From a virus, in the IMG/VR virus record IMGVR_UViG_3300022539_000562: 64,000 nucleotides of DNA; one strand, given 5' to 3'. Below are positions 3,362 through 44,705 of the stretch, in pieces. A program made the position numbers and the translations under genes. The notes beneath the pieces are model-generated. The model searched no databases, had not been told where the DNA came from, and saw only the letters and a program-made list of their open reading frames with translations. Each line of letters opens with the position of its first letter. Within the stretch, counting starts at the first letter, position 1.

Positions 3362-3436
3362 TAGTTGTATTGATGAGATTTGAACTCATATCTTGATGAT
3401 TAAGAGTCATCTGTTTTACCAATTAAACTACAATAC
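3362..3436 (-). tRNA. trnK: tRNA-Lys(CUU), possibly degenerate (3' CTA instead of CCA; 6-bp acceptor)
   Basis: GATGA-CT CTT AA-TCATC; ends ...CAATACAACTA. Confidence 0.75.
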
Positions 3437-3513
3437 TGGCTGTGCAGGTAGGATTCGAACCTACATCTTTGGGATTAACAGTCCCACATTTTACCAATTA
3501 ATACTACTACACA
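3437..3513 (-). tRNA. trnN: tRNA-Asn(GUU)
   Basis: TGGGA-CT GTT AA-TCCCA; G73. Confidence 0.95.
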
Positions 3514-5386: not shown

Positions 5387-5462
5387 TGGTGGAGATAGAG
5401 GGACTTGAACCCACAACTTCAGGGTGCAAACCTAATGTTTTTCCAATTAAAACTATATCCCC
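5387..5462 (-). tRNA. trnA: tRNA-Ala(UGC)
   Basis: TTAGG-TT TGC AC-CCTGA; G3:U70. Confidence 0.95.
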
Positions 5463-27236: not shown

Positions 27237-28489
27237 ACTTTTTCTACCTCTAACAAATCATTGATTGTATTGTAAGTAATCTGTTTAATATTATTGTTAG
27301 CTAAATTTATTTTTGTATGTTTAAATTCTTTTTTTATTTTTCCAAAAAATCCTTTCATATAATTTTTCCACACATATTCCATATCCCATTTTTTAGCAGT
27401 TTTTAAACACCCCTCTTTGTAATAATCAGGATTTCTTTTTAAATTTAAATAAACAATTTCCATTTTTCTAATTATATCATCAATGTCTGGTTTTTTTCTC
27501 CAACTTCCATAATATGTCATATGTATATCTTTTGTTTTTACTAACTCACCATTTATACCCGGTTCTACAATATCAGGCATTGAACTAAAATTAGTAGCAA
27601 TAACAGGAGTACCTGCTGATATACTTTCTATAAGAGGAACTCCAAATCCTTCTCCACTTGAACAATTCATTAAACAATCTATTACATTATAAATTTTATT
27701 TACTTCTACTTGGGATAAACCAATAAGACATTGCCATTTATCTATTACTGTTACATACTCATCTAATTTAAGAGTTTTTACATAATCTCTAATAGGAATA
27801 CAAGGCATTCCAAGACGAATATCATTTGTGTGTATAAATAATCTAACATTAGGATATTTTTTAACAAATTGTTTAAAAGCAAGTAACTGACTTCCAAATT
27901 CTTTTCTATCTTCATAATCTAAATTTGCTGCTACTATTCCAAATACAAAATTTCTTTTATTAAAACCTAAAGTTGTTTTTTTATTTTCTATATTAATAGG
28001 TTTAAAAATAGTACTATCAACACCAAAAGGCAAATAAGTTGCATTAATTCCTACTTTCTTAAGTTCTTTAATAGCAAATTTACTATAAGATACAGGTTTC
28101 CAACAACCTCGTAAATTATGATAGACAAATCTACTTACAGGTTGATGGTCTACTGGAAAAATTGCTATCCATTTATTTGGAAATCTTTCTCCATAATTTC
28201 TAAGAACAAAAACATCACAATGAGTAATAATAATATCACAATTAAATCTTTTAAAATAATAATCAATTATATCTTGACAATGATTCTGATATCCTGTAGG
28301 CAAAACTACAATAGGATAAAATTTATTTCTATATTTAAGAGAATAAGTAAGTGACGCTTCATTCAAACCATAATTAGAAGCCCAAATTACTTCATGATTA
28401 TTTTGTAATAATTTTACTGCCAATAATGTTCCTTGAACAGAATATCCAGTATGACAAAAAGGTGCTGTAGTTTGAAGTAATATTTTCAT
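27233..28489 (-). CDS. Glycosyltransferase family 4
   Basis: SSGEGFGVPLIESISAGTPVI. Confidence 0.9.
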   Translation of the reverse strand: MKILLQTTAPFCHTGYSVQGTLLAVKLLQNNHEVIWASNYGLNEASLTYSLKYRNKFYPIVVLPTGYQNHCQDIIDYYFKRFNCDIIITHCDVFVLRNYGERFPNKWIAIFPVDHQPVSRFVYHNLRGCWKPVSYSKFAIKELKKVGINATYLPFGVDSTIFKPINIENKKTTLGFNKRNFVFGIVAANLDYEDRKEFGSQLLAFKQFVKKYPNVRLFIHTNDIRLGMPCIPIRDYVKTLKLDEYVTVIDKWQCLIGLSQVEVNKIYNVIDCLMNCSSGEGFGVPLIESISAGTPVIATNFSSMPDIVEPGINGELVKTKDIHMTYYGSWRKKPDIDDIIRKMEIVYLNLKRNPDYYKEGCLKTAKKWDMEYVWKNYMKGFFGKIKKEFKHTKINLANNNIKQITYNTINDLLEVEKV

Positions 28490-28749
28490 TATTCCCCTTC
28501 TTTTAATACATTTATACTTTTTTTTATTTTAGATAATTGTTTAAAAAATACAGTTCCTGAAACTTTAGCAAAAAGTGTAAAATCTCTTCCTCTTCCTACA
28601 TTTAATCCAGCTTTATAATGACTACCTCTTTGTCTGATAAGAATTTCTCCACCATTTACAAATTGTCCACTAGAATGTTTTATTCCTAAACGCTTTGAAC
28701 TGCTTTCTCTTCCATTGCGTGATGTACTTTTGCCTCTTGTTTTTGCCAT
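28489..28749 (-). CDS. rpmA: 50S ribosomal protein bL27
   Basis: RNGRES..KRLGIK..GQFV..GEILIRQRG....G.NVGRGRDFTLFA...G.V.F. Confidence 0.95.
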   Translation of the reverse strand: MAKTRGKSTSRNGRESSSKRLGIKHSSGQFVNGGEILIRQRGSHYKAGLNVGRGRDFTLFAKVSGTVFFKQLSKIKKSINVLKEGE

Positions 28750-43744: not shown

Positions 43745-43990
43745 TTAATGTCCCCATATAACATCTGTACCTCTTATTAATTCAACTTTAATATTTGGAA
43801 ACATTTTTTTTAAACATTGTTCTAATTTATAATGATAAATATCTTCATTTTTGTAAAGAATCATAAGATAATCATCACGAATCCATCTATACATATCCAT
43901 ATCAATTTTAGGAAATACTATCCTTTTTAAAAAATTTAATATTTCTTTTCTACGTTCTCTTGTAGCCATTTTTTTATTTTTACCTTCCAT
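43745..43990 (-). CDS. Small alpha/beta paralog family member
   Basis: EILNFL...L..MFPNI.V. Confidence 0.5.
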   Translation of the reverse strand: MEGKNKKMATRERRKEILNFLKRIVFPKIDMDMYRWIRDDYLMILYKNEDIYHYKLEQCLKKMFPNIKVELIRGTDVIWGH

Positions 43991-44207
43991 GTCTATATAA
44001 TATAAAACCTACATTTTCGCTTTCAAATATTTTATCTAAAATCTCTGTTAATTTATCTATATTAACTGTTTCTATTGATTCTATATATATATAAACATAA
44101 TAATTATAAAGATTTTCACTTGTTCCTGGTGAAATTTCTGTACTTTTTATTTTAAGATGAAATGATAAAAATTCTAATGTTTTTTTTATTTTTATTTTTG
44201 TATTCAT
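43980..44207 (-). CDS. Small alpha/beta paralog family member (start probably MNTK, not the longer start in the ORF track)
   Basis: ENL.NYYV..I..L.EILD.IF..ENVGFIL shared with 55240..55524; the longer start runs through the tmRNA-like gene. Confidence 0.6.
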   Translation of the reverse strand: MNTKIKIKKTLEFLSFHLKIKSTEISPGTSENLYNYYVYIYIESIETVNIDKLTEILDKIFESENVGFILYRHGR

Positions 44208-44219
44208 TTTTAATTTTGA

Positions 44220-44314
44220 TGGAGCAGGAGGGATTTGAACCTTCGTCCAAAATAAACAAATAAACAAATATTATGTCAGTTTATTCATTTATCCTGTCGA
44301 AACCCATCTGCCCC
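44220..44314 (-). ncRNA. Minimal tmRNA-like RNA (tRNA-like domain only)
   Basis: GGGGCAG-AT-GGGTTTCGA-[18-bp helix, 13-nt loop]-GAC-GAAGG-TTCAAAT-CCCTC-CTGCTCC-A; G3:U70. Confidence 0.8.
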
Positions 44315-44321
44315 TGTATCT

Positions 44322-44705
44322 TTAATCCCATAAATGTGCAAAATACTTAGCAAATAATTTTATTCCATGTTGAAATTTTTTTTCTAATAAATCTATTTTT
44401 TTGCTATCTATTTCTTGTTTAAATTTACCTTTAATCCATTTGGGTTCGTCATAAGAATCCTTGTATGCTTTAAAACCTTGTATCATTATTTCTAAAGTTT
44501 CAGACCATTTATGACATTCATCATTCTCTACTTTTTCATCCCAGAATTCTGATGAACAACCATGATGTTCTTTTTTTAATCGTTCTAATCCTGCAATAAT
44601 AATACCTGCTAAATAATCATTGAAATCCCATACATCACAATCAGCCCATCCTCTTTTACCTCTCTGGCAAAACCACTTTATATCTTGAAATATATGTTTA
44701 ATCAC
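44322..44705 (-). CDS. Hypothetical phage protein
   Basis: D.W.F..YLA.II..GL...K..HG; LFAKYF.HLWD pattern. Confidence 0.6.
   Translation of the reverse strand: MIKHIFQDIKWFCQRGKRGWADCDVWDFNDYLAGIIIAGLERLKKEHHGCSSEFWDEKVENDECHKWSETLEIMIQGFKAYKDSYDEPKWIKGKFKQEIDSKKIDLLEKKFQHGIKLFAKYFAHLWD

Follow-up and report, generated by a model that had tools for sequence, protein, structure and literature searches.

The viral contig (IMG/VR; 115,399 bp, 26% GC, 99% complete according to CheckV) originates from a marine-sediment metagenome, and positions given here refer to the window, the whole stretch of 64,000 nucleotides that was analyzed. Two co-directional ORFs are located on the minus strand of the window: an upstream ORF of 127 amino acids with no assigned function (44322–44705) and a downstream ORF of 75 amino acids starting from the ATG at 44207 (43980–44207). 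The 115-nt gap between the two ORFs is filled by a tmRNA-like gene on the same strand, hereafter called mini-tmRNA, whose predicted mature size is 95 nt, counted from the initial G of the acceptor stem through the discriminator A73 (44220–44314). The stop codon of the upstream ORF is located 8 nt before the mini-tmRNA, and the start codon of the downstream ORF 12 nt past it. A gene for a DnaB-type helicase is present approximately 500 bp away, and there are no defense or anti-defense genes in this gene context. Around the mini-tmRNA, neither promoter nor terminator signals exceeded the level expected by chance. The lack of such signals and the short distance from the upstream stop codon both suggest that the mini-tmRNA is probably released by excision from a longer, polycistronic transcript.

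Read on the minus strand, the mini-tmRNA has GGGGCAGATGGGTTTCGAC at the 5′ end and GGACGAAGGTTCAAATCCCTCCTGCTCCA at the 3′ end; its start GGGGCAGAUGGGUUUCGAC and its end GGACGAAGGUUCAAAUCCCUCCUGCUCCA are tmRNA-like, and one hairpin lies between the two. The parts are arranged in the standard 5′ to 3′ order. The 5′ strand of the 7-bp acceptor stem, GGGGCAG (44308–44314), holds G3 and pairs with CUGCUCC (44221–44227), which is followed by the discriminator (3′ strand and A73, 44220–44227). G3:U70 and A73 are the determinants of alanine identity. The acceptor stem is followed by a D-loop analogue, AUGGGUUUCGAC (44296–44307), which lacks a D stem, contains the tmRNA-specific UUCGAC, and was aligned with high posterior probability to positions 8–20 of the Rfam tmRNA model RF00023. 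The interior is a helix-2-like hairpin (44249–44296), found in both the MFE and the centroid structures, which consists of an uninterrupted 18-bp helix (14 Watson-Crick and 4 G·U pairs) and a 13-nt loop, UGACAUAAUAUUU, including UGA and UAA. The GGAC motif (44245–44248) was aligned to the RF00023 consensus cGGACG; its first G closes helix 2, and the GAC is unpaired on the 5′ side of the T arm. The role of GGAC in the contact with SmpB is known from published structures of TLD–SmpB complexes, where TLD is the tRNA-like domain. The T arm (44228–44244) is composed of the GAAGG/CCCUC stem, whose third pair is an A·C mismatch, and the loop UUCAAAU. After the discriminator, UCA occupies the position of CCA (44217–44219). 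The preliminary description, made from the sequence alone, had reported a 95-nt mini-tmRNA with tmRNA-like ends on the minus strand, carrying G3:U70, A73, the GGAC motif, no D stem, and an 18-bp helix with a 13-nt loop containing stop codons; all of these features are present at the coordinates originally assigned.

The search with RF00023 gave a score of 68.9 bits (E-value of 9.8e-25, model positions 1–374), and the result was the same on the whole genome. This score exceeds the gathering score of the model (47 bits) by 22 bits, and the match to the tmRNA model is far beyond chance. In the RF00023 alignment, 286 internal model positions are deleted; neither a resume codon nor a stop-terminated tag frame is present in this alignment, and ARAGORN found no tag peptide. 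The pseudoknots PK1–PK4 are also absent, because no sequence remains to form them: the place of the tag frame and the pseudoknots is occupied by the single hairpin of approximately 47 nt. These results agree with the early reading that pseudoknots, a tag ORF, and an encoded CCA are all lacking. Compared with standard bacterial tmRNAs (ssrA, RF00023; especially those of Flavobacteriales and Bacteroidales), the mini-tmRNA possesses homologous 5′ and 3′ ends but lacks approximately 300 nt comprising the resume codon, the tag frame, the stop codon, and PK1–PK4, and is therefore incapable of the mRNA half of trans-translation.

The strand assignment is supported by the predicted folding. The minus strand folds with −36.2 kcal/mol (z = −5.6; 0 of 200 shuffled sequences were as good), whereas the plus strand of the same site folds with only −22.5 kcal/mol. 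The four G·U pairs of the helix would be A·C mismatches if read on the plus strand, consistent with the earlier remark that the G:U pairs favor the minus strand. ARAGORN called neither a tmRNA nor a tRNA at the site, and detected 26 tRNAs elsewhere in the window. Identity as tRNA-Ala was rejected on the basis of this lack of a tRNA call and the presence of a true phage tRNA-Ala at 5387–5462. A two-piece (permuted) tmRNA was likewise rejected, given the standard order of the parts and the best clan match, which was the standard model. Assembly collapse of a full tmRNA had been named as a finding that would overturn the initial interpretation. From the same run, a Logan contig (33 kb) exhibited 0 differences and 0 gaps over 43900–44700; this contig was assembled independently but from the same sample, so that its independence is partial. 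Assembly collapse is therefore unlikely. Taken together, the mini-tmRNA is the TLD of tmRNA without the mRNA-like domain.

The TLD had also been described as intact. Its identity as a TLD was confirmed, but the word intact goes slightly too far, given the UCA tail and the A·C mismatch in the T stem, the latter having been overlooked. The T arm of standard tmRNA consists of 5 bp and a 7-nt loop of the GGUUCNANUCC type; the mini-tmRNA has all of the motifs there, with four of the five stem pairs formed, and the middle pair is marked as noncanonical in the alignments to both RF00023 and the class model R1 described below. CCA is encoded by 25 of the 26 phage tRNAs, the exception being tRNA-Lys(CUU) with CUA, versus UCA in the mini-tmRNA. 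A T-stem mismatch, one in each case, was also observed in two of the 25 well-registered phage tRNAs (His and Ala); a single mismatch is therefore not disqualifying. The A·C mismatch and the UCA tail are both GC-to-AT changes, as drift in a genome of 26% GC would yield.

A search of phage sequences for short TLD-only matches, which had been suggested at the outset, revealed that this form is not confined to the present phage. Two pattern scans of IMG/VR for two conserved TLD halves separated by at most 60 nt yielded 126 candidates, which were filtered for a 7-bp acceptor stem starting with GGG and containing G3:U70. The resulting class consists of 85 loci with 62 unique sequences of 61–107 nt. 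All of the members possess A73; CCA is encoded in 30 of the 62 sequences and not in the other 32. A covariance model, R1, was built from a seed of 16 members sharing the 5′ geometry of the mini-tmRNA, with the mini-tmRNA itself in the seed. R1 recovered all 62 sequences, the 61 other IMG/VR members scoring 53–78 bits. The mini-tmRNA scored 67.3 bits with R1, versus 29.3 bits for the phage tRNA-Ala. In addition, R1 found an element outside the seed in Mycobacterium phage DS6A (JN698994:28478–28557, 52.2 bits), at an unannotated site between gp33 and the gene for DNA polymerase III; this element did not reach the RF00023 cut-off.

In the alignment of the 63 sequences, 97.8% of the cells are paired, compared to 70.4% in shuffled sequences. 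Compensatory changes were observed in 12 of the 18 pairs, and the covariation signal was lost when the partners were slid by 1–3 columns. The acceptor stem and G3:U70 (63 of 63) were partly pre-selected by the filter, and UUCGAC and GGAC are invariant by construction of the search pattern, whereas the filter did not select for covariation in the T stem or at the base of helix 2. The first six pairs of helix 2 covary across the class. The only unpaired T-stem cell of this alignment is the A·C of the mini-tmRNA (pair 138–150, counted as "other:1"). The mini-tmRNA is also at the edge of the class in other respects: its GC content (0.38) is the lowest, its 18-bp helix is the longest of the 62 members (the next longest is 16 bp), and its 13-nt loop is the largest (8 nt or less in all of the others).

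Most of the class members are missed or mislabeled by ARAGORN. About 38 of 60 members have no tRNA gene nearby, and their contexts are diverse. Among the 39 other viral records carrying a mini-tmRNA, an integrase was found in 11, SmpB in none, and RtcB in only three. A link to RtcB, which had been suggested by DS6A, was rejected on these counts and on the absence of RtcB from the present phage. The TLD-only form of tmRNA is thus recurrent and common in phage sequence data, and the present copy is not a new kind of RNA.

The precedent cited in the preliminary description, the tag-less tmRNAs of jakobid mitochondria, is valid, but a closer precedent in DS6A and the wide occurrence in phages had been overlooked. 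The DS6A molecule is entered as a CDS-less, "TLD only" tmRNA in the tmRNA Website (tmID 11587), and it is treated in two papers (PMC4131195 and PMC11915505). According to Hudson, Lau & Williams (2014), who cite Mao et al. (2009), a molecule similar to that of DS6A strongly inhibits tmRNA whether it is chargeable or not, perhaps by titrating SmpB (PMC4131195). The 2025 database paper states that the DS6A form inhibits the endogenous tmRNA in E. coli (PMC11915505). Like the mini-tmRNA, the DS6A element is a phage-encoded complete TLD (G3:U70, A73, no D stem, and a T arm) with a single-hairpin interior, has neither a tag frame nor pseudoknots, occurs in a phage without SmpB, and is found by R1. 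Both are located near a replication gene: the DS6A element is just upstream of the DNA polymerase III gene, and the mini-tmRNA is near DnaB. In contrast, the DS6A element is 80 nt with 70% GC, compared to 95 nt with 38% GC for the mini-tmRNA. The former has variant motifs (GGUCGAC and GGCACG), and its short interior ends in a CCGCACGCGG tip, whereas the latter has canonical motifs, an AT-rich helix of 18 bp, a 13-nt loop, and the T-stem mismatch, and passes the Rfam cut-off. Furthermore, DS6A is temperate (integrase gp56), whereas the present phage has no integrase.

The organellar tmRNAs offer a second comparison. CDS-less tmRNAs persist together with SmpB in jakobid mitochondria and some plastids; the tmRNAs of jakobid and oomycete mitochondria and those of Mallomonadaceae plastids (approximately 65 nt) are TLDs without a coding part, and SmpB is encoded elsewhere (PMC11915505). 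These tag-less tmRNAs are the sole tmRNA of their compartment and have co-evolved with an imported SmpB, whereas the mini-tmRNA is an extra copy brought by a virus. Existing alongside the full tmRNA of the host, it would therefore be a competitor rather than a resident system.

Comparison with bacterial genomes provided some insight into the origin of the mini-tmRNA. The exact sequence of the T arm and the 3′ strand of the acceptor stem, with the mismatch position left open, was found in only 6 of 185,579 species genomes, all of which are Bacteroidota (three Chryseobacterium and three Bacteroidales). The 5′ 24 nt of the mini-tmRNA, which were not selected in this search, match the Chryseobacterium tmRNA at 20 of the 24 positions. 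The full tmRNAs of the six genomes have no encoded CCA, and their 5′ 24 nt also match the mini-tmRNA. The Chryseobacterium tmRNAs contain exactly two copies of the 8-mer TAAGCATG, at approximately positions 41 and 338. Helix 2 is palindromic in its upper part, of which each copy forms one strand; the copies are therefore direct repeats flanking the whole coding and pseudoknot region. A deletion between the repeats is predicted to give a 103-nt product, whose interior is identical to that of the mini-tmRNA at 32 of 54 positions (z = 2.4, p of about 0.01 versus shuffled sequences). Of the 62 class members, 7 have GCATG precisely at the tip of the hairpin, compared to 1.5 expected by chance. These observations suggest that repeat-mediated deletion is a simple and repeatable route to TLD-only forms, and they lend modest support to such a route for the mini-tmRNA. 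A Shine-Dalgarno core precedes 54% of the long ORFs of the phage, compared to 6% of random windows, and such heavy use of Shine-Dalgarno sequences is unlike Bacteroidota. The putative host signals are thus in conflict: the TLD resembles the tmRNAs of Bacteroidota, but the use of Shine-Dalgarno sequences does not. The phage also encodes the ribosomal protein bL27, and the nearest bacterial bL27 genes belong to a different, uncultured lineage.

The base composition of the mini-tmRNA bears on whether this copy is maintained. The two TLD arms have a GC content of 58%, which only 1.7e-5 of all 48-nt windows in the genome attain. In the interior, the GC content is down to 17%, but all 18 pairs are kept, and the sole non-Watson-Crick pairs are G·U on the transcribed strand. 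The combination of GC-rich arms and an AT-drifted but fully paired interior thus points to long residence under selection at the RNA level: the AT-ameliorated interior argues against a recent capture, and the GC-rich arms argue against a relic. Judging from these compositional features, selection on the mini-tmRNA is likely, and we regard it as very probably a functional RNA gene.

Searches for a close relative of the phage or an ortholog of the mini-tmRNA, using DnaB, the adjacent DUF5662 gene, the 127-aa ORF, and two metagenome scans, found none. The DnaB search found no close relatives in IMG/VR. The DUF5662 gene, with 1,631 homologs, belongs to the mobile genes of phages and occurs in unrelated contexts; the six loci examined contained no tmRNA. 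The 127-aa ORF has three homologs, the closest of which are L140/L141 with 53% identity. The syntenic gap of L140 contains an unrelated GC-rich hairpin, with no tmRNA-like match even at an E-value of 0.01. As for the metagenome pattern scans for an ortholog, the first was empty and the second gave only the L035 and L016 subtypes. BLAST searches of the region and of the mini-tmRNA against the INPHARED phages gave nothing useful.

We next consider what the mini-tmRNA may do in an infected cell. The stack of the acceptor and T stems, the alanine identity pair, and the elbow motifs are the parts of tmRNA that bind SmpB, alanyl-tRNA synthetase, and EF-Tu. In the 99%-complete phage genome, no gene was found for SmpB, a CCA-adding enzyme, ArfB or another RF-1-domain protein, or peptidyl-tRNA hydrolase (Pth), and any activity of the RNA would thus be expected to rely on host factors. 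The anatomy of the TLD, the lack of phage partner proteins, and the inhibition reported for the DS6A form together lead us to propose competition for SmpB and stalled ribosomes. The role put forward initially, an SmpB decoy or a tag-free rescue RNA, is in keeping with this proposal and with the one made for the DS6A element (PMC4131195, PMC11915505). We infer the steps of expression, processing, SmpB binding, charging, and host effect as follows. The mini-tmRNA would be co-transcribed with its neighbors, and host RNase P would cut the 5′ end. Precursors of phage tRNAs without CCA can be matured by 3′ nucleases and the CCA-adding enzyme of the host; similarly, host enzymes would have to trim the 3′ trailer beginning with UCA and add CCA before the RNA could be charged. 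The tmRNA-specific elbow (UUCGAC and GGAC, with no D stem) would bind host SmpB, and G3:U70 and A73 would permit charging by the host alanyl-tRNA synthetase. The resulting complex would sequester SmpB and, if charged, might also enter stalled ribosomes. Lacking a resume codon and a tag frame, it would not add the degradation tag. Overall, the RNA would block or dilute tagging by the host during infection, leaving truncated phage proteins or ribosome complexes unmarked for proteolysis. The view that the mini-tmRNA is an expressed TLD-only tmRNA gene of a lytic-type phage, competing with the host tmRNA through host factors, is our preferred explanation, and we consider its chance of being correct to be about even.

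The same determinants could instead serve tag-free rescue, in which alanylated mini-tmRNA together with host SmpB would free stalled ribosomes without tagging, the benefit being additional release capacity. The requirements for charging and for binding EF-Tu and SmpB are all there (G3:U70, A73, the 7 + 5 bp stack, UUCGAC, and GGAC), and the complete set of 26 tRNAs together with bL27 indicates that the phage invests in translation. The retention of CDS-less tmRNAs with SmpB in jakobid mitochondria and some plastids, as described in PMC11915505, is also in line with such a role. However, release of peptidyl-Ala-RNA would require a host hydrolase, as genes for chain release (ArfB, RF-1 domain, or Pth) are absent from the phage, and CCA is not encoded. 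No resume or stop codon would be able to reach the decoding center: the stop triplets lie at the tip of the 18-bp helix, and in tmRNA, helix 2 is directed away from the decoding center, so these triplets are expected to be unreadable. Moreover, the DS6A-like molecule is described as inhibitory regardless of chargeability (PMC4131195). We therefore regard tag-free rescue as unlikely. It is less probable still that the mini-tmRNA is a decaying relic, i.e., a captured bacterial tmRNA whose interior was deleted and which is drifting as a nonfunctional remnant. Such a history would account for the sole T-stem mismatch among the 63 members, the UCA in place of CCA, and the failure to detect an ortholog in a relative, including the different hairpin at the syntenic gap of L140, and the TAAGCATG repeats of the Chryseobacterium tmRNAs offer a simple deletion route. 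Drift would, however, erode both the GC-rich arms and the fully paired, AT-rich interior, and all four non-Watson-Crick pairs of the helix would hardly be expected to be G·U on the transcribed strand. The RF00023 score well over the cut-off and the tolerance of one T-stem mismatch in tRNAs of the same phage also argue against decay, and we consider this explanation unlikely.

A role in RNA processing or stability was also considered, in which the mini-tmRNA would act mainly as an RNase P/RNase Z site for the flanking mRNAs and have no role on the ribosome. The position in the narrow gap between co-directional ORFs, where promoter and terminator signals did not exceed chance, is compatible with such a role. 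The tRNA array of the phage is tightly packed, so that single cuts mature neighboring RNAs, which offers a parallel. On the other hand, RNase P needs only the acceptor/T stack, for which UUCGAC, GGAC, and G3:U70 would be superfluous, and the motifs are kept in all of the class members, including the majority situated away from tRNA genes in diverse contexts; this role is accordingly rated as very improbable. The mini-tmRNA might alternatively be a decoy for other host factors that bind tmRNA, such as SmpB-like defense proteins (CnuH of CoCoNuT) or RNase R. For CoCoNuT systems, OB folds resembling that of SmpB and possibly able to bind tmRNA are predicted (PMC11090510), and RNase R is bound by tmRNA fragments in the AcrIIIA1 system (PMC11662646). 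This idea rests wholly on predictions for other systems, and the lack of defense or anti-defense genes around the mini-tmRNA, together with the absence of RtcB from the phage and its rarity in the other records, makes it highly improbable. Finally, ssrA is a common integration site for phages, and an integrase is found in some of the other viral records, which might bring to mind an attP-type remnant of ssrA from an integration or excision event. An attP carries only the 3′ part of ssrA, whereas the mini-tmRNA has both halves, perfectly paired, and no integrase gene was found in the phage genome. A derivative of tRNA-Ala is opposed by the scores on the class model (29 bits for the phage tRNA-Ala versus 67 bits for the mini-tmRNA). 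An origin of either kind is hardly credible.

Another gene of the phage may be related to ribosome rescue. The bL27 gene (28489–28749, minus strand; PF01016, 94.6 bits) is located 15.5 kb from the mini-tmRNA. The phage protein is a rare form of bL27 lacking HKK: in a sequence alignment, its N-terminus is AKTRGKST, compared to the almost invariant AHKKAGGS of bacteria. The only close homolog, P0126, is on a 1-kb contig; it is 77% identical and also has an altered N-terminus, ATTRAKG. AHKK is retained in the nearest bacterial copies, and AHKK or AHKM in the four other viral bL27 genes of IMG/VR. A 2026 study reported that the N-terminus of bL27, specifically HKK, restrains tmRNA–SmpB, and that replacement of HKK with AAA lowered the EC50 of tagging to less than 25% of that of the wild type (PMC13450312). 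The set of 14 viral ribosomal proteins in Mizuno et al. (2019) does not include bL27. P0127–P0130 were rejected as related phages, since they are bacterial chromosomal genes in the mreBCD...rng-rpmA-obg context. One may imagine a two-part system that reprograms ribosome rescue, in which the phage bL27, without the HKK that gates the access of tmRNA–SmpB to the peptidyl-transferase center, would replace the host bL27 and alter the ribosome entry of tmRNA-type ligands, and the mini-tmRNA would then occupy SmpB and stalled ribosomes. The link gets no support from co-occurrence: bL27 was found in none of the 39 other viral records with a mini-tmRNA, and no tmRNA-like gene was found in the three other bL27-encoding viral records searched, one of which is a 4.6-kb provirus fragment. 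Weak matches to the tmRNA model in two jumbo-phage records carrying bL27 turned out to be ordinary tRNA-Ala and tRNA-Glu. The two-part system remains conceivable because both genes are intact in one genome and the altered N-terminus is common to P0126, but we consider it very unlikely.

TLD-only tmRNAs look like a common tool of phages, for which DS6A is the only example in the literature. Their detection by standard means is poor: ARAGORN skips the mini-tmRNA and overlooks or misassigns most other members of the class, and the Rfam cut-off omits DS6A. The present copy gives the clearest compositional evidence of selection in the form of GC-rich arms in an AT-rich genome, and, as the bearer of the longest helix of the class, should be useful for learning how much of helix 2 matters. 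Many bacteria cannot live without trans-translation, which is also a target for antibiotics. If it is true that TLD-only RNAs block or divert trans-translation, they would be a natural and transferable inhibitor of the pathway. In the present phage, such an RNA occurs in one genome with a variant of bL27, a ribosomal protein recently shown to gate tmRNA–SmpB (PMC13450312).

TLD-only tmRNAs, which retain the tRNA-like domain but no tag sequence, could have arisen from full tmRNAs by a simple route. In the full-length tmRNAs of three Chryseobacterium loci (L153:2775-3174, minus strand; L149; and L152), TAAGCATG occurs exactly twice, at approximately positions 41 and 338. The two copies are direct repeats enclosing the entire coding and pseudoknot region, and a deletion between them is thus suggested, from sequence comparison, as a path to TLD-only forms. 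GCATG is situated at the tip of the hairpin in 7 of the 62 unique viral mini-tmRNAs, compared to 1.5 expected by chance.

The published TLD-only tmRNA of Mycobacterium phage DS6A (L132:28478-28557, identical to JN698994:28478-28557, plus strand), located between gp33 and the DNA polymerase III gene, is not annotated in GenBank record JN698994 and scores below the Rfam gathering threshold. ARAGORN called some mini-tmRNAs either long tmRNAs with implausible tags or odd tRNAs (Glu, Arg), the mislabelled loci being L082:2640-3138, L005:2976-3318, L066:1991-2081, and L085:1899-1981, and made no call for most of the others.

In the 20.5-kb phage-like contig L140, the site syntenic with the mini-tmRNA of the window lies directly after a homolog (53% identical) of the ORF upstream of that mini-tmRNA. 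It is occupied by a long GC-rich hairpin (L140:10388-10613), which is unrelated to the mini-tmRNA and had no match in Rfam. The same contig encodes a reduced, 266-nt class-A bacterial RNase P RNA (L140:12472-12737, plus strand; RF00010, 149 bits against a cut-off of 100) within a tRNA gene array of about 30 members (L140:12058-15582). The RNA ligase RtcB is encoded in 3 of the 39 other mini-tmRNA viral records (G001 and G012, of the L005/L039 type, and G018, carrying L055). DS6A also encodes RtcB (gp76), unlike the phage of the window. A TROVE (Ro60-like) protein is encoded at L135:3579-5045 (plus strand), in a phage-like contig found via DUF5662.

The phage-encoded ribosomal protein bL27 (window 28489-28749, minus strand; PF01016, 94.6 bits) lacks the conserved HKK, its N-terminus being AKTRGKST. 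Its sole close homolog (P0126, 77% identity, on a 1-kb contig) begins with ATTRAKG. AHKK is kept in the nearest bacterial homologs (67–70% identity), whose genes lie in the context mreBCD...rng-rpmA-obg-nadD-rsfS-leuS-comEA/EC. AHKK or AHKM is likewise retained by the remaining four viral bL27 genes of IMG/VR. The host indications of the whole 115,399-bp genome contradict each other: the TLD most closely resembles Bacteroidota tmRNAs, whereas a Shine-Dalgarno core accompanies 54% of long ORFs, compared to 6% of random windows.

Among the 26 phage tRNAs, only tRNA-Lys(CUU) (window 3362-3437, minus strand), which has an A1·A72 mismatch, lacks an encoded CCA. Its CUA end, together with the UCA of the mini-tmRNA, implies that the phage would rely on its host for 3′ trimming and CCA addition.
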